Source of the DNA: Escherichia coli | Lineage (GTDB): Bacteria; Pseudomonadota; Gammaproteobacteria; Enterobacterales; Enterobacteriaceae | Assembly (NCBI RefSeq): GCF_044324785.1 | Contig: NZ_CP172127.1 | Length of the DNA stretch: 64,000 nucleotides | Direction: 5' to 3' (one strand) | Shown here: positions 2,621-56,262 of the stretch, piece by piece | Position numbering within the stretch: the stretch's first letter is position 1 | Layout of the letters: every line of letters begins with the position of its first letter | Position numbers and translations under genes: made by a program | The notes under the pieces: model-generated | Databases searched by the model: none | Told to the model about the DNA's origin: nothing | Seen by the model: only the letters and a program-made list of their open reading frames with translations

Positions 2621-3680
2621 TGGTTGCCCCCGTTTTTCCTGGCATTTCGCCACCTTCCAGCAGGAAATGAACGTCACGAACGGCGAGATCCAATATCGCG
2701 AGTAACGCCTTCAGTCTTTCGTCTCGTGAGGGAGAGTTGCTCACCAGAATGTCGTTAATCACTTCTGTCAGTGTGATGATCTGGCTTGTGCGTTCGAGGG
2801 GATCCATATGCACATCGTAGGTTTTAATCATGAGCCACCTCCATGCGGATACGACCAGCAAAAAAGCAGACGTGATCGCGCACCAGAGAACGGCGAGCAT
2901 CGCGTTCAGACTCGGCAGCAATATGATGAATTTTGGCGGTAATTGTCGGGCAATCGCGGCGAACTGCGGCGATAATCCAGATAAATTGCGGTTTTTGGGT
3001 AGGGGTAGTAGCCAGCATGTGGCAGCCTCCATTCGATAGCATGTAACGCTACCACCGGAAACGCCAATTTCGCTGGTGGTAGCCCAGACAGGGTTGGCGT
3101 AACCGGCTCGAATGGATACCGGCGCTTCCGAAGAAGCCCCTGCCTGAGCCACCATTGATTGACAAAGGCGCTGGATTATACACCAACGCCCAAAAAATGG
3201 GTGAGTCAGACCTACGACATAAAAAAAGACGCTCGGCGCGTCATATGTCGCCATTCGATTTACCAGGACGCCAATCCCGGCACCCGTTTTATGAGGTGCC
3301 TTATAACCATAAACCGTGTTGCCGCATAACGGCAAGCTCTTTTTTATGGACTCCGAAAACTCGCTATTGGAAGCACCAGATGCACAGTACATCGCGCTCA
3401 TTTCGTTAACGTCACGCACGTGGACGAATGTTTTTGTGGAGTCACTACACGAGCGGAAGACATCATCTACGACCAGAAATTTTCTGGCGCAGCCGCTGAC
3501 CTTCTCAACGCTAACACCATCGACCGTAATTTCTGACATAGTTAAGGCATCCGCTCCCACCACCAGAAAATGATAAACTTTGCTTGTATCTGCTGTATTA
3601 ATGCCAGACTTTGCTGTCATATTGCTGGATTTTGGCGACATACCTGCCAGTGAAAATGTCTTCTTCTGGACGGTTAGCAT
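2613..3680 (-). CDS. hypothetical protein; gene structure uncertain (355-aa ORF, possibly two genes)
   Basis: Single uninterrupted ORF with a GGAGG Shine-Dalgarno 7 nt before its ATG at 3680; however a second strong GGAGGTG ribosome-binding site precedes an internal ATG at 2831 and the middle of the ORF has a W/C-rich composition atypical of real protein. Confidence 0.3.
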
Positions 3681-3856
3681 TTGTTAACCTCCGCGAACTC
3701 CTTCATGAAACGTGCCAGCGGTTGTACGCATGGCGATTGATACCCGTCGCGATAAAACGTCACTCGGTTGTGAGACACGCTTTCGACAGTAACGAGTGCT
3801 CCGTGGGCATCTTTGTAGCGTTTTTGAGGTTGTGGTGTTCCTGTCGGCTTAAACAT
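3674..3856 (-). CDS. hypothetical small protein (about 60 aa)
   Basis: ORF 3674-3943 trimmed to internal ATG (MFKPTGTPQPQK...) so that it does not run deep into the upstream gene; stop abuts the next ORF start. Confidence 0.3.
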   Translation of the reverse strand: MFKPTGTPQPQKRYKDAHGALVTVESVSHNRVTFYRDGYQSPCVQPLARFMKEFAEVNKC

Positions 3857-42462: not shown

Positions 42463-42534
42463 ACTGCCCCCTTAGTGCGGGGGCAGGATAGCAGAAAATT
42501 GGTGATTGGTACGGTCTTTTCCCCTCACCCCCGA

Positions 42535-43725
42535 CTATGCCGCATTCCCTTTCGCCATCGGAGCCAGTGCCGCAGGCAACTCTTTACCCAGCCCCTGCAC
42601 CAGCGAATCTTGCGTAATTTCGCTAATTGATTTCGCACCAGTCAGCGTCATTGCCACTTTCATCTCTTTTTCGATCAGATTCAGCAGGTTAGCTACACCC
42701 GCCTGGCCCGCTGTTGCCAGCGCATACAGGAAAGCACGACCCAGCAGTATGGTATCAGCACCGAGCGCGATCATACGCACGACATCAAGCCCGTTACGAA
42801 TCCCGCTATCTGCCAGAATGGCGATATCACCTTTCACGGCATCTGCAATAGCAGGCAGTGCACGAGCAGAAGAGAGTACGCCATCTAACTGGCGGCCACC
42901 GTGGTTAGAAACCACAATTCCATCAGCACCAAAACGTACTGCATCGCGCGCATCTTCCGGATCGAGGATCCCTTTGATCACCATCGGGCCATCCCAGAAA
43001 TCGCGGATCCACTCAAGGTCTTTCCATGAGATGGACGGATCGAAGTTATTCCCCAGCCAGCCGATGTAATCTTCCAGTCCGGTCGGTTTGCCGAGGTAAG
43101 CCGAGATATTACCTAAATCATGTGGACGACCGTTCAGGCCCACATCCCACGCCCATTGCGGATGCGTCACCGCCTGCAAATAGCGGCGCATTGCCGCGTT
43201 CGGGCCGCTCATCCCAGAATGTGCATCACGGTAACGTGCGCCCGGTGTCGGCATATCCACGGTGAAAACCAGCGTCGAGCAGCCTGCCGCTTTTGCTCGC
43301 TCCAGCGCGTTACGCATAAAGCCGCGATCGCGCAGCACATAAAGCTGGAACCACATCGGACGTTTAATGGCTGGAGCGACTTCTTCAATCGGGCAAACGG
43401 AAACCGTCGAGAGAGTAAACGGAATGCCATGCGCATCCGCCGCTTTGGCAGCCTGAACTTCGCCACGACGCGCATACATGCCACACAAACCCACCGGAGC
43501 CAGCGCCACCGGCATCGACAATTTCTCATTAAACAGCGTCGTTTCCAGGCTTAAGTCAGACATGTTTTTCAGAATACGCTGGCGCAGCGCCACTTCTGAC
43601 AAATCTTCCACGTTGCGGCGCAGCGTGTATTCAGAATATGCACCCCCATCCATATAGTGGAACAGGAACGGCGGCAGAATGCGTTGTGCTGCGGCGCGAT
43701 AATCGCTGGCTGCGGAAATAATCAT
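42535..43725 (-). CDS. lldD: L-lactate dehydrogenase (FMN-dependent)
   Basis: [50 protein letters not shown]... Confidence 0.95.
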
Positions 43726-46564: not shown

Positions 46565-49500
46565 TTACCACTGAATACCGGCACCGAGTGCGGCGGAGTA
46601 TTCACCCTGGCTATTGGTACTACCTTGTAATTTGTAGACCCAACGACCATTGGCGCTCACCATCGACACACCTAAAGCAACAGCCGACTCACCGTTGTAA
46701 GTACCGCCACCAATAGAGGCCATACTGGCACCTGGAGTGTAAGCCTGCGGCAGACCGGTCATTGCCATTGCAGAAGCGATACCACCGCTCAACTTGCTTT
46801 CGGTTTTGGACAGTTTGTTATCCATCTCAACCATCCGCTGATCGGTGTATTGCTTCGTTTCCTGCACGCTTTGCTTCAGCTGCGCATAGTTCACTGCGTC
46901 GTTGTTGTTCACGCCAGCGGAGACGTTGCTGATGCGAGTCGTACCGCCATTACCACCACCGAGAGTGATGTTGCTGTAGTCTACAGAGCCATCAGCTTTG
47001 GTGTCGTAACGAACGCCGCCTGCCTCAGAAGACTTCAGCTGCGAAACGTTAACCGCATCGGTGGCATTAACACCTGCAGCAACGTTGGTGATACGACGCT
47101 GGTTGGTAGAAGAACCCACAGAGATGGTATTTTCTTCGTTGGCCACGGAGCCTGTACCCAGCGCGACGCTGTTGTCAGCGGCAGCAATGGAACCAGAACC
47201 AATCGCAACACTGTCTTTACCCTGCGCGTTGGCATCTACGCCATCGGTGTTGGTCTTGAAGTATTTGGTGCTACCGGTGGTTACGATATCGCCAATGCCG
47301 TTTTCGATATTGGTAACGCGAGTATCCAGATTCGTCACCTGATTGTTCAGGTTAGTAATGCTCTGGGTATTCTGGGAAACCTGCGCGTCCGTTACTTTCA
47401 ACTGACCCACGTTGACCGCATCGGTATCAGCCGAACCAGCCGCGACGTTGGTGATCTGACGTTGACCGTCTTCACTGCCGACAGAGAACTCACCCACAGA
47501 GTTCTGCGGTGCATCCATGTTGTAGGCGGTGTAGCCAGTTTGAGCACCACGAGTCGTCTGTGAGCCATTACCCATAGCAATGCTGTTTGCATGGTTTGCA
47601 CGCGCGTTGCTACCAATAGCAATACCGTTGATCGCATCAGACAGAACCAGAGTGTTCAGGCCGATACCAATGCCCGCATTACCATTAACGATAGTATTCG
47701 CGCCCATTGCCAGCGAGTCAGTACCTACTGCCAGTGAATCTTCTTCCGTTGAATTAGCGTGGAAGTATTTAGTCGGCGTGGTTGCAACTGCACCAATGGC
47801 ATTTTGCAACTGGCGAACCGTAACGGCGTCATGGGCTTCGGAACCATCGGCTACGTTGATGATTTGACGATATTTACCATCATCACCAATAGACAACGCA
47901 CCAAGTAGTTCGCCATCCGTGGTGTCATAACCAATCACAACACCTTCTTCCGACACGCTGGTGTCACGAGAACCTTTAACTATTACACGGCTGGAAACAG
48001 AACTGCTACCCAGGGCGATACCCGTATCAACGTCGCTGTAGCTGTCCTGACCGATGACTACACTGCTATGGCCTTCGGCAACAGCGTTATAACCCACGGC
48101 CACGCTGCTATCGCCTTTGGCAACAGAGTCATAACCGACAGCGGTAGAGCCGATACCAACTGCGCTGGCGTCGTTGAACGCTAAGCCCTTATCGTTGGTA
48201 CGCACATAGTTAATACCTGCACCATTTTCGTTGATATAGGATTCGCTGGTGTCACCGGCAAGCTGATTGATGATTTCGCTGTTCTGCTGGATCATCATAT
48301 TGGTGTTAAACAGCTGAGAACCGTTGATGGCGTCGGTACTGCCTTCGCCAATGTTACCATCAGCAACGTTTGTGATGATGCTGGCCTTGCCGTCATGGCT
48401 GGCGTTGTAGGCACCTGCACCGTCATTGGCCGTTGCATCCCACAGCAGAGCGTTATCGTCGAGCGCATCCAGGGCGTCACCGACGTTGTTGTACTCGGCA
48501 TTTGCAATGGTGTAACTCGGCGCAGTGATAGTGCCGTCAGCGTTAACTTCTGCGTCACCCCCCAGGGCATCGGCAATGTATTTGTTGGTGGTATACAGTT
48601 GTGAACCGTTAATGGCATCGCTGCTGGTGGCAGAGATTGCACCGTTAGCGACGTTAGTGATTACACTGGCTGTTTTATCTTTTCCGTGAGCGGCGCTAAA
48701 TGCACCATTACCATCATTGGCTGTAGCATCCCACAGCAGGGCGTCATCCAGCGTGGTATCGATCGCTTCCAGCGCGTCACCGACGTTGCTGTAACTGCCG
48801 CCAGCGATGGCATAAGTCGGTGCGGTGATTGTGCCGTCAGCATTGACTTCTGCGTCACCACCCAGAGTATCGGCAATGTACTTGCTGGTGTCATAGAGCT
48901 GTGAGCCGTTAATAGCGTCGCTGCTGGTAGAGGAAATTGCACCGTCTGCAACATTAGTAATGATGCTGGCCATGTTATCTTTTCCGCGACCGGCGCTAAA
49001 CGCACCGTCACCGCCCTTGGCGGTCGCATCCCAGAGTAGGGCGTCACCGAGTGATGTGCTAAATGACGTGTTAATGGCTGCCAGAGCCTCACCGACGTTA
49101 TTGTAGTCAGTACCACCAATAGTGTAGGTTGGCCCGGTTAATACACCCGCATCGCTGATATCAGCACCACCGCCAAGGTATGACGTAAATGAATCAGCTA
49201 AGCCATAAAGTTGTGAGCCATTAATGGCGTCAGTGCTGTCAGAGGATACTGTGCCTGCCAGTAAGTTGGTGATTTTGCTGTCAGTACCGTTGGTGCCGTG
49301 TTTGGCACTGAATGCACCCGCCGTAGCATTCCACAGCAGAGAGTCATCACCGAGACTGTCAACAGCATCACTCAGGTTGTTGATATTGGTAGTGTTGGTG
49401 GTGATATTGGCGGTATTGGTCGCCACGTTATCGTTGGTGGTTTTCAGCTGAGAGCCGTTAACCGCGTCGGTGCTGCCAGCCGCCAGTTCACCGGCTTTGA

Positions 49501-52279
49501 CGTTGGTGATTTTGTTGGTGGCATCGGTGCCGTGCGCGGCGCTGAATGCTTTCGCTGCATCATTCCACAGCAGAGAGTCATCACCGAGACTGTCAACAGC
49601 GTCAGTCAGGTTGGTGATGTTGGTGGTGTTCGTGGCGATATTGGTGGTGTTGGCTGCCACGGCATCGTTAGTGGTTTTGAGCTGAGAGCCGTTAACCGCG
49701 TCGGTGCTGCCAGCCGTCAGGTCACCGTCTTTGACGTTAGTGATTTTGCTGGTGGCATCGGTACCGTGTGCGGCGCTGAATGCTTTCGCTGCATCATTCC
49801 ACAGCAGAGAGTCATCACCGAGACTGTCAACAGCGTCAGTCAGGTTGGTGATGTTGGTGGTGTTCGTGGCGATATTGGTGGTGTTGGCTGCCACGGCATC
49901 GTTAGTGGTTTTGAGCTGAGAGCCGTTAACCGCGTCGGTGCTGCCAGCCGTCAGGTCACCGTCTTTGACGTTAGTGATTTTGCTGGTGGCATCGGTACCG
50001 TGTGCGGCGCTGAATGCTTTCGCTGCATCATTCCACAGCAGAGAGTCATCACCGAGACTGTCAACAGCGTCAGTCAGGTTGGTGATGTTGGTGGTGTTCG
50101 TGGCGATATTGGTGGTGTTGGCTGCCACGGCATCGTTAGTGGTTTTGAGCTGAGAGCCGTTAACAGCGTCGGTGCTGCCAGCCGTCAGGTCACCGTCTTT
50201 GACGTTGGTGATTTTGCTGGTGGCATCGGTGCCGTGCGCGGCGCTGAACGCGGTGCCATTCCACAGCAGGGCATCGTCTTTAAGGTCGCCAACGGAATCA
50301 GTCAGGTTGGTGATATTGGTGGTGTTGGTCGCTACGTTATCGTTGGTGGTTTTGAGCTGAGAGCCGTTAACCGCGTCAGTGCTGCCAGCCGTCAGGTCAC
50401 CGTCTTTGACGTTGGTGATTTTGCTGGTGGCATCGGTGCCGTGCGCGGCGCTGAACGCGGTGCCATTCCACAGCAGGGCATCGTCTTTAAGGTCGCCAAC
50501 GGAATCAGTCAGGTTGGTGATATTGGTGGTGTTGGTCGCTACGTTATCGTTGGTGGTTTTGAGCTGAGAGCCGTTAACCGCGTCAGTGCTGCCAGCCGTC
50601 AGGTCACCGTCTTTGACGTTAGTGATTTTGCTGGTGGCATCGGTGCCGTGCGCGGCGCTGAACGCGGTGCCATTCCACAGCAGGGCATCGTCTTTAAGGT
50701 CGCCAACGGAATCCGTCAGGGTATTGATACTGTTAGTGTTGGTGGTGATATTGGCAGTATTGGTCGCTACGTTATCGTTGGTGGTTTTCAGCTGAGAACC
50801 GTTAACCGCATCCTTACTGGTATCAGAAATAGCGCCGTCTTTAACGTTGGTGATGGTACTGGTAGTATCTGTACCATGTGCCGCACTATATGCCTTTTTA
50901 AGGGAGTCCCATTGTAACGTATTATTGTCCAGGCCCGTTAAGGCGTCGCCAACAGTGCCGAAAATACCACTTTTCAGCCTGTAATTTGGGGAAGTAACGA
51001 CGCCTTGCGCATTGACGGTAGCCCCCCCACCAAGATTGTCCGCTACTGACTTACTGATAGCATAAAGCTGTGATCCATTGATGGCATCAGTACTGGTAGT
51101 GCTGATATCACCTGCTGCCATATTGACAATTTGTCGCTGAGCTGTTGTGTTACCCACAGAAACAGTATCCGCGTCAGTCGCTACAGAACCAGCACCCAGA
51201 GCAACTGAATTTTTCCCCTGAGCACTGGCTTGAGCACCAATTGCAGTGCCATTTTCTAAACCGGCATAACTGCCTTGTCCAAGAGCAATAGCATTTACAC
51301 CACCTGTAATACTACCATTACCCAGCGCGATAGCATTTGCGCCGTCAGCTTTATTCCCTTGACCGATGGCAATTGCGCCAGCCGCTACTGCCTGACTTTG
51401 ATTGCCCAGAGCAATCGTGTTGTCGACATCTGCAATACTGCCGGAGCCCAACGCGATACTATTAAGTCCATTTGCCTCCGCGTTAGTACCAACTGCCGTC
51501 GCATTTTCAGCAGCTTTGCTCTCTGCACCCATAGCAATCGCGTTTGCGTCGCTGGCGGCGGATAGTCTGCCTAATGCGAGGCTGTCTACGCCAGCAGCAG
51601 CACTGTTACGGCCTACTGCAATCGCGTTAGCTGCAGATGCGGCACTACTTGCACCCAGCGCCATTGCATATTCTTTCGACGCATTAGCCGTTGCACCGAG
51701 GGCGATACTCATAATTCCTAAGGCCTTGCTCTTACGTCCAAATGCGATGGCGTCATCAGCACCAGTCTCTGCGTAATCCCCTTGTGCAATAGCAAATTCA
51801 CCTGTTGAGTTTGCATAACGACCAAGTGCGATTGAAAATCCACCCGTTGACGTTGCCGATGCACCTATAGCGAGGCTTCGCTCACCTGCTGAGATAGTGT
51901 TAATCCCTAACGCCACTGATGCTTCGCCAAGCGAATGGGTCTTAGCACCGAGGGCTGTTGACCACCTTCCGTCAGCAGTTGAGTGATAACCTACTGCGGT
52001 GCTGGAGCCACCCCCGGTGTCTGTAAAGCTATTTGCTTTTGCATCTTCACCGATAGCAACCCAGCCTGTTCCTGTGCCCTGGCCATAATTGACGCCCTGA
52101 CCGTTGTCAATCCCGGCATTCGCCAGTGCCCCAAACGACGACAACAACCCACCCGCAACCAGGGCAGAAATTAACAGCTTACTGCGCCCGCTCTTTTTGC
52201 CACGGCTTTTGGCCGTTTCGCTGGCAACGGTGTAACTGCCCGTAGCCGGATTCCAGATAACTTTAAAAATTTTGTTCAT
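46565..52279 (-). CDS. trimeric autotransporter adhesin (YadA-like membrane anchor; UpaG/EhaG/SadA family), 1904 aa
   Basis: N-terminal extended signal peptide [21 protein letters not shown]...; hundreds of residues of NxxAxG/SxAxG head and neck repeats; C-terminal YadA-type anchor ...[41 protein letters not shown] ending in aromatic residue. Confidence 0.9.
49452..50800. repeat. near-identical in-frame tandem repeats inside the autotransporter gene (3 x 234 bp then 3 x 207 bp)
   Basis: Antisense ORF track shows identical 71-aa peptides at 49704 and 49938 (period 234) and identical 62-aa peptides at 50172 and 50379 (period 207); in the sense frame the protein repeats [48 protein letters not shown]... 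Confidence 0.85.
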
Positions 52280-52322: not shown

Positions 52323-53006
52323 TTATTTTTTGTTTTTTCGCTGCCGAGTTTCAGCAGGTTGAACAGTGTCGAACTGGAGATTGGCCATATTGATGGACAA
52401 CTTCAGATACTTCAGGTTATTAGGCGAAACGCCTTTTAATGTCAGATTAATGTCTTGCCATTGACCAGGCATTAATTGCAGAGTGGAATTCATGGTGGTG
52501 TTGAAAAGTAATTGTTGCCACTTTGCCAGAGCTTTGGCATCGGTGGGTCTTTCATTGCCCCATGTCGCATGAAAGCCAATATTTGATACGGGAACGCTTA
52601 AAAGGTTAACCAGCGAAATACGAATAACACTGCCATTTTCAACCGCATCAATAGCCAGCACCCGGCCTGCCAAACCGACCGATCCGTTATTTAAAATGAA
52701 ATATTGTGTTTGTGCTGGGTTAAATTCTGTAAAGACAAATTCGTCCTGCTTGTCTTTAACCGCTTTCACCACGCCAGCGAGCGTTTTGGTACTATTTATG
52801 ATGGTAGTTTGTTGTTTTTCAAAATGTTCTATCTTTCGCTTATCGAGTTCCTGTTGTTTCTCAAGCGCCTCAATTTTGCTTTTTTGCAACTCTTGCTGTG
52901 TAACGAGGTCGTCGACCTTACTCGCTTTTTCAATATAGTCACACCCTGCCAATAAGCAGAGAGGCACTATTATTAACACGCTTAACAGTGTTTTCTTTAG
53001 GTTCAT
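52323..53006 (-). CDS. SadB-like lipoprotein (putative trimeric autotransporter export helper)
   Basis: Lipobox LLAGC after signal peptide; coiled-coil segment QQELQKSKIEALEKQQELDKRKIEHFEKQQ; encoded immediately upstream of and co-oriented with the autotransporter, as sadB is with sadA in Salmonella. Confidence 0.6.
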   Translation of the reverse strand: MNLKKTLLSVLIIVPLCLLAGCDYIEKASKVDDLVTQQELQKSKIEALEKQQELDKRKIEHFEKQQTTIINSTKTLAGVVKAVKDKQDEFVFTEFNPAQTQYFILNNGSVGLAGRVLAIDAVENGSVIRISLVNLLSVPVSNIGFHATWGNERPTDAKALAKWQQLLFNTTMNSTLQLMPGQWQDINLTLKGVSPNNLKYLKLSINMANLQFDTVQPAETRQRKNKK

Positions 53007-54432: not shown

Positions 54433-55020
54433 TTACTTTTGAAAGGCTTTTTTTAAGCTGATTTTGGAAATCAGCTCTGTCAGTGAAAGGACCATTGTTG
54501 ATCGCACAGCCTGTTGGTAACGCTGAATTTGCATTGCATACAAACTGGAGTCTGCAGGTTCAAACTGTGGCGGCGGTGGTAACGCCGCCACGCAATGCAG
54601 TTCACCAAAGGGTCCAAGGATTTCGTCGTCGGTAAACGCGTACTCGTTGCCGTCGTGATTTAGCTCTTCACGCAATGCCATCAGTAGCTCCGCATCTTCG
54701 TATTCCTGGCGGTTAATGACGCCCAACCCGTAAATGAGTTTTAAACGCACAGAAAGCTCGCCCAGCGGACCGTCGCCGTCGAGTAACGGTTCTACAGCAT
54801 ACTTCACCGCGTAATCGTCTTTGCGGAATACCTGAAGCACCAGAAGATTTACCGCCTCGGTCAAAAGCTCGACGGCGGTGATCAGAAAGCTTCGCACGGT
54901 TTTGCCAGCATTCAGACGCTCAAGCACACGGTTTTCAAAGGCCTGGGTTTGTTCCATTGTTGCCTGCATATCTGACAATCTGTTATTCGGGCGCAGGGTG
55001 TCCTGCGCCTGGTCCACCAT
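54433..55020 (-). CDS. mtlR: mannitol operon repressor
   Basis: 195-aa ORF directly downstream of mtlD. Confidence 0.85.
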   Translation of the reverse strand: MVDQAQDTLRPNNRLSDMQATMEQTQAFENRVLERLNAGKTVRSFLITAVELLTEAVNLLVLQVFRKDDYAVKYAVEPLLDGDGPLGELSVRLKLIYGLGVINRQEYEDAELLMALREELNHDGNEYAFTDDEILGPFGELHCVAALPPPPQFEPADSSLYAMQIQRYQQAVRSTMVLSLTELISKISLKKAFQK

Positions 55021-56168
55021 TATTGCATTGCTTTATAAGCGGTTACCGCCTCGGATACAACCTCGCTGTTGGCATCAAGACCGGAAATCTGTGCCAGCGC
55101 CGCCTGCGGACCTTTGTCAGCGATCAGTGCTGCCAGTTCCTGAGCCTGCGGATCATCTTCACTGCGGAAGTGCATTGCAGCGGCAATACCTTCAATCAGG
55201 TTTTTATGTGGCAGACCATATTCCAGCGTACCGAGCAGTGGCTTGATCAGACGGTCACCAGCGCTCAGTTTACGCAGCGGCTGACGGCCTACGCGCTCTA
55301 CATCATCTTTCAGATACGGGTTCTCAAAACGACCAAGGATTTTCTGGATGTACGCCGCATGTTTGTCCGCGTCAAAGCCGTAACGCTTGATCAGTACCGC
55401 GCCGCTTTCTTCCATCGCACCTTTTACCACCGCGCGGATTTTCTCGTCGAGAATCGCATCACGAATGGTCTGATGACCCGCCAGTTTTCCGAGGTACGCG
55501 GTTATAGCATGACCCGTATTCAGGGTGAAGAGTTTACGTTCGACAAATGCCATCAGGTTGTCGGTTAACTCCATGCCTGGGATGTTCGGCAGCGCGCCTT
55601 TGAACTGGGTTTTATCAACAATCCATTCGCTGAATGTTTCTACCGTCACTTCCAGCGGATCGTTGGTTGCAGAAGCCGAAGGCGGCACGATGCGGTCAAC
55701 GGCGGAATCAACAAAGCCAACGTGTTCTTCTACCCACGCTTTGGCATCTTCTGGCAGGGCGTTCATCACATGGCCTTTCAGCTGCGTGGTGCCGCGTACC
55801 ATGTTTTCACAAGCGATAATGTTCAGTGGGGATTCATTACCTTGTTCTTTACGTTTCACCAGCCCTTTGGCGATTGCCGGGGCAATACGTTCCAGCACAA
55901 CCGGACCAACGGCGGTAGTGACTAAATCAACCTGAGCAATCAGATCAACGACATCATCACCAATGCTGCTGACGGCATTGACGCCGGAAACGGTATCTAC
56001 CTGCTCGGTTTCACCGACCACATGAACCTGATAGCTATGACGGGCATTCAGGGCATCAAGTACCACCTGATTGACATCGGCAAACGTCAGTTGGATACCC
56101 GCGTCTGCCAGCAGTTTACCGATAAAGCCACGACCGATATTACCTGCGCCAAAATGTAATGCTTTCAT
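55020..56168 (-). CDS. mtlD: mannitol-1-phosphate 5-dehydrogenase
   Basis: ORF trimmed to [34 protein letters not shown]... (382 aa). Confidence 0.95.
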
Positions 56169-56189
56169 AGTATTAACCTTCATCAATGT

Positions 56190-56260
56190 TTTTACCCGAG
56201 AGGGCTGGGGTGAGGCTTTTCCCTCACCCAAACCCTCTCCGTGAGGAGAGGGTAGGATTG
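56190..56260. repeat. GC-rich palindromic element in the mtlA-mtlD intercistronic region
   Basis: Two adjacent hairpins: gggtgagg-cttttc-cctcaccc and ccctctc-cgtgagg-gagaggg. Confidence 0.6.
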
Positions 56261-56262
56261 GA

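Follow-up and report, generated by a model that had tools for sequence, protein, structure and literature searches.

The window, by which we mean the whole stretch of 64,000 nucleotides of Escherichia coli DNA that was analysed, carries the mannitol operon on its minus strand. Gene calls were taken from the list of open reading frames (ORFs) together with the RefSeq annotation of the identical strain N3 chromosome record NZ_CP031609.1, and they place mtlA (PTS mannitol transporter IICBA; ORF list and N3 annotation) at 56263-58176 with its stop codon TAA at 56263-56265, mtlD (mannitol-1-phosphate 5-dehydrogenase; N3 annotation) at 55020-56168 with its start codon ATG at 56166-56168, and mtlR (ORF list and N3 annotation) at 54433-55020. 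The spacer between mtlA and mtlD is 94 nt long (56169-56262, minus strand). A sequence-only reading of this DNA had pointed to two adjacent GC-rich palindromes in this intercistronic gap of a single operon, and the annotation agrees with that placement. The palindromes themselves are real: GGGTGAGG-cttttc-CCTCACCC occupies 56208-56229 and CCCTCTC-cgtgag-GAGAGGG occupies 56233-56252 (both as read on the plus strand), neither occurs a second time in the 64-kb window, and neither pattern was matched in 100 dinucleotide-preserving shuffles (0/100). A repeat search widens the second palindrome to 9 bp of 100% complementarity around a 4-nt loop (56232-56240 / 56245-56253). What the description as two palindromes had overlooked is a third CCCTCTC block, which makes five blocks and not four.

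Written in mRNA sense, the N3 spacer reads UAA uccaauccu ACCCUCUCC ucac GGAGAGGGU uu GGGUGAGG gaaaag CCUCACCC cag CCCUCUC ggguaaaaacauugauGAAGGuuaauacu AUG, and the five blocks follow in the order Y1 (CCCTCTCC), R1 (GGAGAGGG), R2 (GGGTGAGG), Y2 (CCTCACCC) and Y3 (CCCTCTC), all on the minus strand. A stretch of 9 nt whose sequence varies between genera (56254-56262) leads from the mtlA stop to the first stem, SL1, which was recognised as an inverted repeat and a predicted stem and has Y1 (ACCCTCTCC, 56245-56253) as its 5' arm and R1 (GGAGAGGGT, 56232-56240) as its 3' arm. R2 (GGGTGAGGG, 56221-56229), the mirror image of R1, is the 5' arm of the second stem, SL2, and Y2 (CCTCACCC, 56208-56215) is its 3' arm, with the loop GAAAAG at 56216-56221. 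Y3, the third copy of the pyrimidine block (56198-56204), can pair with R1 as its alternative partner or can form a mini-hairpin, CCC-UCUC-GGG, with 56195-56197. The A/U-rich mtlD leader (UAAAAACAUUGAUGAAGGUUAAUACU, 56169-56194) completes the spacer and holds the Shine-Dalgarno sequence GAAGG at 56177-56181. Because Y3 is present, the repeat search also finds an 18-nt inverted repeat of 89% complementarity between R1-R2 and Y2-Y3 (56198-56215 / 56222-56239), and the five blocks can therefore form either twin hairpins or one long hairpin, two competing folds. The GAAGG of mtlD is also predicted to lie in the loop of a weak hairpin, AUUGAU-GAAG-GUUAAU (56169-56190, minus strand), which recurs in the predicted folds of three out of four further species, all of them close relatives.

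The suggestion that the palindromes belong to a small repeat family is borne out by their block architecture, which is that of BoxC, also called PIT (potential intrastrand triplex) or TMECO, an interspersed enterobacterial repeat (Holder et al. 2015, PMC4666352) that has been known since the 1990s and was treated earlier by Bachellier et al. and Hoyne et al. (both cited in PMC4666352). The TMECO consensus is given there as CCCTCNCCC N3-6 GGGNGAGGG N3 GGGNGAGGG, and the 23 copies listed for K-12 are intergenic without exception; inverted pairs occur at five sites, each of which joins a type A unit, with linker TTA, to a type B unit, with linker CCG or CTG (PMC4666352). A TMECO single strand folds into a purine-motif triplex in vitro, with none detected in vivo, and TMECO loci are linked to local genome variability or instability; the same study assigns the repeat no function (PMC4666352). 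With this family the mtl element has in common the three-block unit (CCCTCTCC, loop, GGAGAGGG, 3-nt linker, GGGTGAGGG), the intergenic location expected for BoxC, variable flanking DNA and what looks like an inverted-pair layout, with one linker that is type A-like and one that is type B-like. It also has mirror-image purine blocks that permit G*G:C, T*A:T and A*A:T triads: for CCCTCTCC / GGAGAGGG / GGGTGAGG, 8/8 purine-motif triads are allowed in N3, and across 67 sequences the allowed triads number 9/9 in 35, 8 in 24 and 7 in 8.

The mtl element can be described as a composite of one unit, Y1-R1-(TTT)-R2, and an inverted remnant, Y2-Y3, which on the other strand reads R-(CTG)-R. The linker TTT is one change away from the type A linker TTA, and CTG is the linker of the published type B copy no. 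8; the second unit is without its hairpin, which has shrunk to CCCTCTC followed by GGG, the GGG alone being left. Read side by side, the mtl element looks like a more compact form of the K-12 pairs at hrpB-mrcB and lldD-trmL, from which it differs in its inter-unit spacer of 5-6 nt, as against 16 nt in the hrpB-mrcB pair and a longer one in lldD-trmL. It further departs from the family in the 8-nt length of the E. coli blocks and in the reduction of the second unit to Y2-Y3-GGG. Since the first stem has 8 bp and the loop 4 nt, the strict TMECO pattern is unmatched by the N3 spacer even with three substitutions allowed, and the mtl site is missing from the published K-12 table and supplements of PMC4666352. 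Orthologous copies from other genera do fit the strict consensus, which is matched by 24 of the 66 orthologous spacers of other species, and on these grounds of sequence the mtl hairpins are best called a diverged, BoxC-derived ortholog rather than a strict TMECO.

As for other copies in the genome, by which the sequence-only reading proposed to check the family assignment, they exist for the family and not for the exact element. Of 5426 complete E. coli genomes, 5408 contain the family consensus, with a median of 15 places in each, and the 65-nt mtl composite occupies one place per genome (BLAST, 5426 E. coli genomes), so that what is repeated is its units alone. The 64-kb window has no second complete BoxC copy. 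GGGNGAGGG at 42522 was considered as a second element and rejected as one leftover block. In the lldD-trmL region of N3 (42495-42545, minus strand) the inverted pair of K-12 (TMECO nos. 17 and 18) is absent, and what is left between lldD and the leader of trmL is one block, GGGGTGAGGGG.

Within E. coli the mtl core is close to universal, being found in 5404 of 5426 genomes (99.6%) and at 99% identity or more in 4827. The canonical BoxC pair at lldD-trmL, 7 kb away in K-12, is in contrast complete in 2715 of the 5426 genomes (50%), and the mtl copy is set apart from typical BoxC loci by being fixed in E. coli and orthologous over 24 genera, with a linker that pairs at two of its three positions. 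The DNA beside the core varies, with at least three spacer length alleles: 94 nt (N3 and O157:H7), about 229 nt (K-12, with two REPs) and about 319 nt (E302 and A33, with four REPs). In the 229-nt spacer of K-12 the extra 135 nt consist of a hairpin (CCCACCCTCTCC acat GGAGAAGGTGGGG) and a two-REP BIME, placed between direct repeats of CCCTCTCC. As an estimate of the frequency of the short allele, 885 of 5386 genomes (~16%) match the K-12-specific junction only partly, a figure with which single-piece matches to the N3 junction in 4 of 24 evenly spaced rows roughly agree. The long form of the spacer also occurs in E. albertii, and the 94-nt allele is therefore most simply a deletion, which would have arisen between the two CCCTCTCC direct repeats. 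The five-block core and the mtlD leader are the same in all seven aligned alleles, with the exception of one loop. This is the SL1 loop of APEC E14033 (L006), which is ACAT and not TCAC; ACAT is the loop of the extra upstream hairpin of K-12-type alleles, and the exchange may reflect conversion or recombination between two similar hairpins.

Conservation was followed between genera by a scan with the MtlD protein of one genome per species, which yielded 80 loci, in each of which the end of mtlA was located and the spacer extracted. The five-block core stands directly upstream of the mtlD leader in 66 of the 80 loci, that is, in 66 species from 24 named genera of Enterobacteriaceae, including Escherichia, Salmonella, Citrobacter, Klebsiella, Enterobacter, Kosakonia, Lelliottia and Leclercia as well as Cedecea, Buttiauxella, Siccibacter, Franconibacter, Mangrovibacter, Pluralibacter, Yokenella, Atlantibacter and others. 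Pairs of sequences have an average identity of 0.90 over the blocks and linkers of the core, compared with 0.77 over the mtlD leader and 0.33 over the ten columns that precede the repeat blocks (alignment A3, in which Y1 is out of register). For mtlD itself, the corresponding averages over its first 120 codons are 0.92 at the first, 0.96 at the second and 0.58 at the third codon position, and the conservation of the core is thus about that of the first codon position. Identities for the last 100 codons of mtlA were disregarded, because the C-termini of mtlA are not collinear and the values are meaningless. From the distribution of the core we infer that the common ancestor of the Enterobacteriaceae sampled here probably had it between mtlA and mtlD already and that it has been retained since. 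It is this conservation at an orthologous site that is new, the repeat family itself being already known.

The DNA upstream of the core is an insertion hotspot. In species without insertions Y1 starts about 7-13 nt past the mtlA stop, and in other genera the upstream half of the spacer has taken up REPs, further canonical BoxC units or ERIC elements. Citrobacter werkmanii (L015), C. youngae (L017) and Enterobacteriaceae RIT691 (L054) carry, upstream of the core, about 125 nt of inserted DNA that includes ...GTGAATCCCCAGGAGC...GTGACTGGGGTGAGCG... and that we take to be an ERIC/IRU element. Strict TMECO units are also found downstream of mtlR in three Enterobacter loci (L031, L032 and L034, at about 3670-3810), which confirms that the BoxC family is active outside E. 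coli. The mtlA-mtlD gap of Pantoea and Mixta has no BoxC. Pantoea has instead two tandem and unrelated GC-rich hairpins, GGGGCGGGCAAGCCCGTCCC and GGGGCGGATTTGCCCGCCCC, at fixed positions of about 1428 and 1456, and Mixta has one, a layout analogous to the BoxC twin hairpins; the loci with such non-BoxC hairpins are mostly from these two genera (L073, L075-L076, L078-L079, L081-L085 and L087-L089). Two of them carry other labels, 'Enterobacter cancerogenus M004' (L073) and 'Enterobacter ludwigii EnVs2' (L079), and have a Pantoea-type mtl locus with 83% MtlD identity and the Pantoea hairpins, which may point to wrongly labelled assemblies or to horizontal transfer.

In the sense of the operon, the spacer RNA is predicted to fold with -40.4 kcal/mol, compared with -25.8 +/- 3.5 kcal/mol for shuffled sequences (z = -4.2), and 0/200 shuffles were as stable. 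The twin-hairpin fold of N3 is predicted at -40.1 and the long hairpin at -40.2 kcal/mol; among 67 species the minimum-energy fold is the twin form in 42 and the long form in 24, with energies that are near equal in most. This near equality is due to the fact that Y1 and Y3 duplicate each other and therefore is no evidence for a selected switch.

Pairing between the blocks was followed across species in alignment columns that were picked with the blocks in mind, and on this footing 95.7% of cells are paired in the long hairpin (alignment A4), with six pairs that have changes on both sides, a result reached by 0/500 shuffles; shifting the partner by 1-3 columns as a control left only 38-61% paired. 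Two of the three linker positions are nearly always pairable in the long hairpin (one with UG 38, CG 18 and UA 4, another with UA 57 and CG 2), and its arms are completely complementary in a Klebsiella oxytoca locus (L022) and in Siccibacter colletis. SL2 and the small third stem together have 94.4% of cells paired and five pairs changed on both sides; among the double-sided changes in SL2 are GGGAAAG/CTTTCCC in Franconibacter and, in the locus that bears the label Citrobacter freundii M-21 (L056), GGGTGAAAGG/CCTTTCACCC, and a mismatch, GGTTGAGG, occurs in Salmonella and several Citrobacter. As Y1 was out of register in the MAFFT alignments, SL1 was tested by comparing run lengths rather than column pairs: in 34 of 66 sequences Y1 has a C-run exactly as long as the G-run of R1, and over 5000 permutations the mean was 19.9 and the maximum 33. 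The majority of stem pairs show no variation across species, R1 being almost invariant among those aligned and its partner Y3 varying at few positions. The compensatory changes come from few lineages and could result from quasi-palindrome template switching without selection. Moreover, the blocks are kept more strictly than a hairpin requires, which points to a sequence-specific or DNA-level constraint that is family-wide and not to RNA structure alone.

An Rfam search of 55900-56500 at a permissive E-value returned chance-level microRNA and snoRNA matches only (E of at least 0.5, with scores far below the gathering threshold), and literature searches found nothing on the mtlA-mtlD gap. In its main text, the Term-seq study PMC9023263 names neither mtlA nor mtlD, no 3' end within the gap appears in the supplements of PMC7815308, a study that mapped 3' ends, and a 2026 paper on MtlR does not mention it. 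In the transcript data sets checked, the mtl operon was uninduced.

The conservation of the element at one site in at least 24 genera suggests that it may have a job in the mRNA of the mannitol operon, and a role as an mRNA stabiliser plausibly fits such strong orthologous conservation. REP/BIME elements act as intercistronic mRNA stabilisers, for example in malE-malF. Like them, the mtl element is a GC-rich extragenic palindrome that lies in an operon, near a stop codon and without a U-tract, and the function proposed here is the same, a barrier to 3' exonucleases that allows differential expression within an operon. The sequence of the mtl core is unrelated to REP, and the REP consensus palindrome (GCCGGATG...CATCCGGC / GCCTGATGCG...ATCAGGC types) is absent from the 94-nt N3 spacer; REPs are confined to the extra 135-nt or 225-nt segment of K-12-type and E302-type alleles, beside the BoxC core.

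Our analysis leads us to favor, tentatively and as a possibility that falls somewhat short of an even chance, the reading that the BoxC-derived composite acts as an mRNA decay barrier that separates the decay of mtlA from that of mtlD-mtlR. The blocks would fold in the order of transcription, SL1 (Y1:R1) 9 nt past the mtlA stop and then SL2 (R2:Y2) and the small third stem, and RNA polymerase would read through the combined structure of about -40 kcal/mol because it has no U-tract. An endonucleolytic cut in the A/U-rich mtlD leader would then leave stems that halt 3'-to-5' exonucleases, and the mtlA segment would decay on a schedule separate from that of mtlD-mtlR, as with REP/BIME in other operons. 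The long hairpin (R1-R2 : Y2-Y3), with the same predicted energy, might be an alternative state or a site of double-stranded RNA processing. The decay-barrier reading is supported by analogy by the unrelated GC-rich hairpins that Pantoea and Mixta hold in the same gap, and it is weakened by the SL2 mismatch of Salmonella and several Citrobacter and by sequence conservation of the blocks in excess of what stems call for.

It is also possible, if rather doubtful in our judgment, that the element is a passive or selfish BoxC copy without any role in mtl, held in place by genome-wide upkeep of the BoxC consensus through a property of triplex or hairpin DNA, a sequence-specific factor or gene conversion, with template switching keeping the arms complementary. 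Such a copy would be in keeping with blocks that are near-invariant and the same as the family consensus, with the retained triplex-compatible mirror symmetry of R1 and R2, with the lack of a demonstrated function for the BoxC family (PMC4666352) and with the indel hotspot just upstream, as reported for TMECO loci. However, other BoxC loci are gained and lost between E. coli strains, lldD-trmL being complete in half of them, and the mtl copy is fixed at 99.6% and across 24 genera. The E. coli form has, moreover, departed from the consensus in its 8-bp stem and its TTT linker and is fixed in that state, which argues that there is no homogenisation now, and Y2-CAG-Y3-GGGU and the adjoining leader, which lie outside any single unit, are conserved too.

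It would take an unlikely further step to regard the mtl copy as an exapted BoxC whose bistable RNA has been kept throughout the history of the Enterobacteriaceae and sets the relative output or stability of the transporter and dehydrogenase messages. Should that be the case, it would be the first function assigned to any BoxC/PIT member and would offer a natural assay system.

An effect linked to translation seems to us quite improbable. Here the hairpin about 9 nt past the mtlA stop, within the footprint of the terminating ribosome, would cause stalling and tmRNA rescue and hence less MtlA. Liang, Rudd and Deutscher are said to have described in 2015 (Mol Cell) that REP elements less than 15 nt from a stop codon hinder termination, with ribosome stalling and tmRNA rescue. 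At the mtl locus, the first perfect GC-rich hairpin (BoxC SL1, REP or other) begins a median of 9 nt past the stop and at most 15 nt past it in 57 of 81 spacers, and in species without insertions the distance from the stop to Y1 is steady at about 7-13 nt although its sequence is not conserved. This distance statistic carries reduced weight, because any insert into a 9-nt spacer lands near the stop and the pattern is partly one of construction. In addition, species with ERIC or other long inserts, in which SL1 lies 40-145 nt from the stop, still conserve the core, and the conservation of R2, Y2 and Y3 is left unaccounted for.

Processing by RNase III, which would cut the long hairpin (R1-link-R2 : Y2-link-Y3, 17-19 bp and longer in the predicted N3 fold) and so split mtlA from mtlD-mtlR, we regard as very improbable. 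In N3 the long and twin forms are isoenergetic, and in 24 of 67 species the fold of lowest energy is the long one; both its pairable linker positions and its fully complementary arms in K. oxytoca and S. colletis are consistent with such a substrate, but folding in the order of transcription favors SL1 first and the helix is at the lower limit of length for RNase III substrates. A leaky terminator or attenuator that sets the mtlA:mtlD ratio, the partial terminator of the sequence-only reading, is very unlikely and already disfavored, for although the stems, like those of an intrinsic terminator, are stable, GC-rich and formed in nascent RNA between two genes, they have no U/T-run after them on either strand and therefore are not an intrinsic terminator, a promoter and terminator scan of the gap (56169-56262) gave no terminator-like or promoter-like site, mtlD and mtlR thus having no promoter-like site of their own there and needing read-through, and published PIT assays, as summarised in PMC4666352, showed neither promoter nor terminator activity and no effect on RNA polymerase. 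Those assays took in promoters, terminators and RNA polymerase and not mRNA decay.

The mtl copy stands apart in its family by its fixation at one site, mtl output is easy to measure through growth on mannitol, mannitol-1-phosphate toxicity and the MtlA:MtlD ratio, and E. coli offers three natural alleles of the neighbouring DNA (94, ~229 and ~319 nt). Together these properties make it a practical locus at which to ask what BoxC does, if anything; if loss of the element has no effect, it is merely an old and well-preserved repeat.

Beyond mtlR, the window also holds a 227-aa ORF (52323-53006), for which no Pfam match was found, and beside it a 1904-aa ORF (46565-52279, minus strand) with an ESPR signal and YadA head, stalk and anchor domains, which on this domain content is a trimeric autotransporter adhesin. 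The K-12 coordinates of mtlR and lldP leave no room for it between the two genes, and the 1904-aa ORF therefore appears to be strain-variable.
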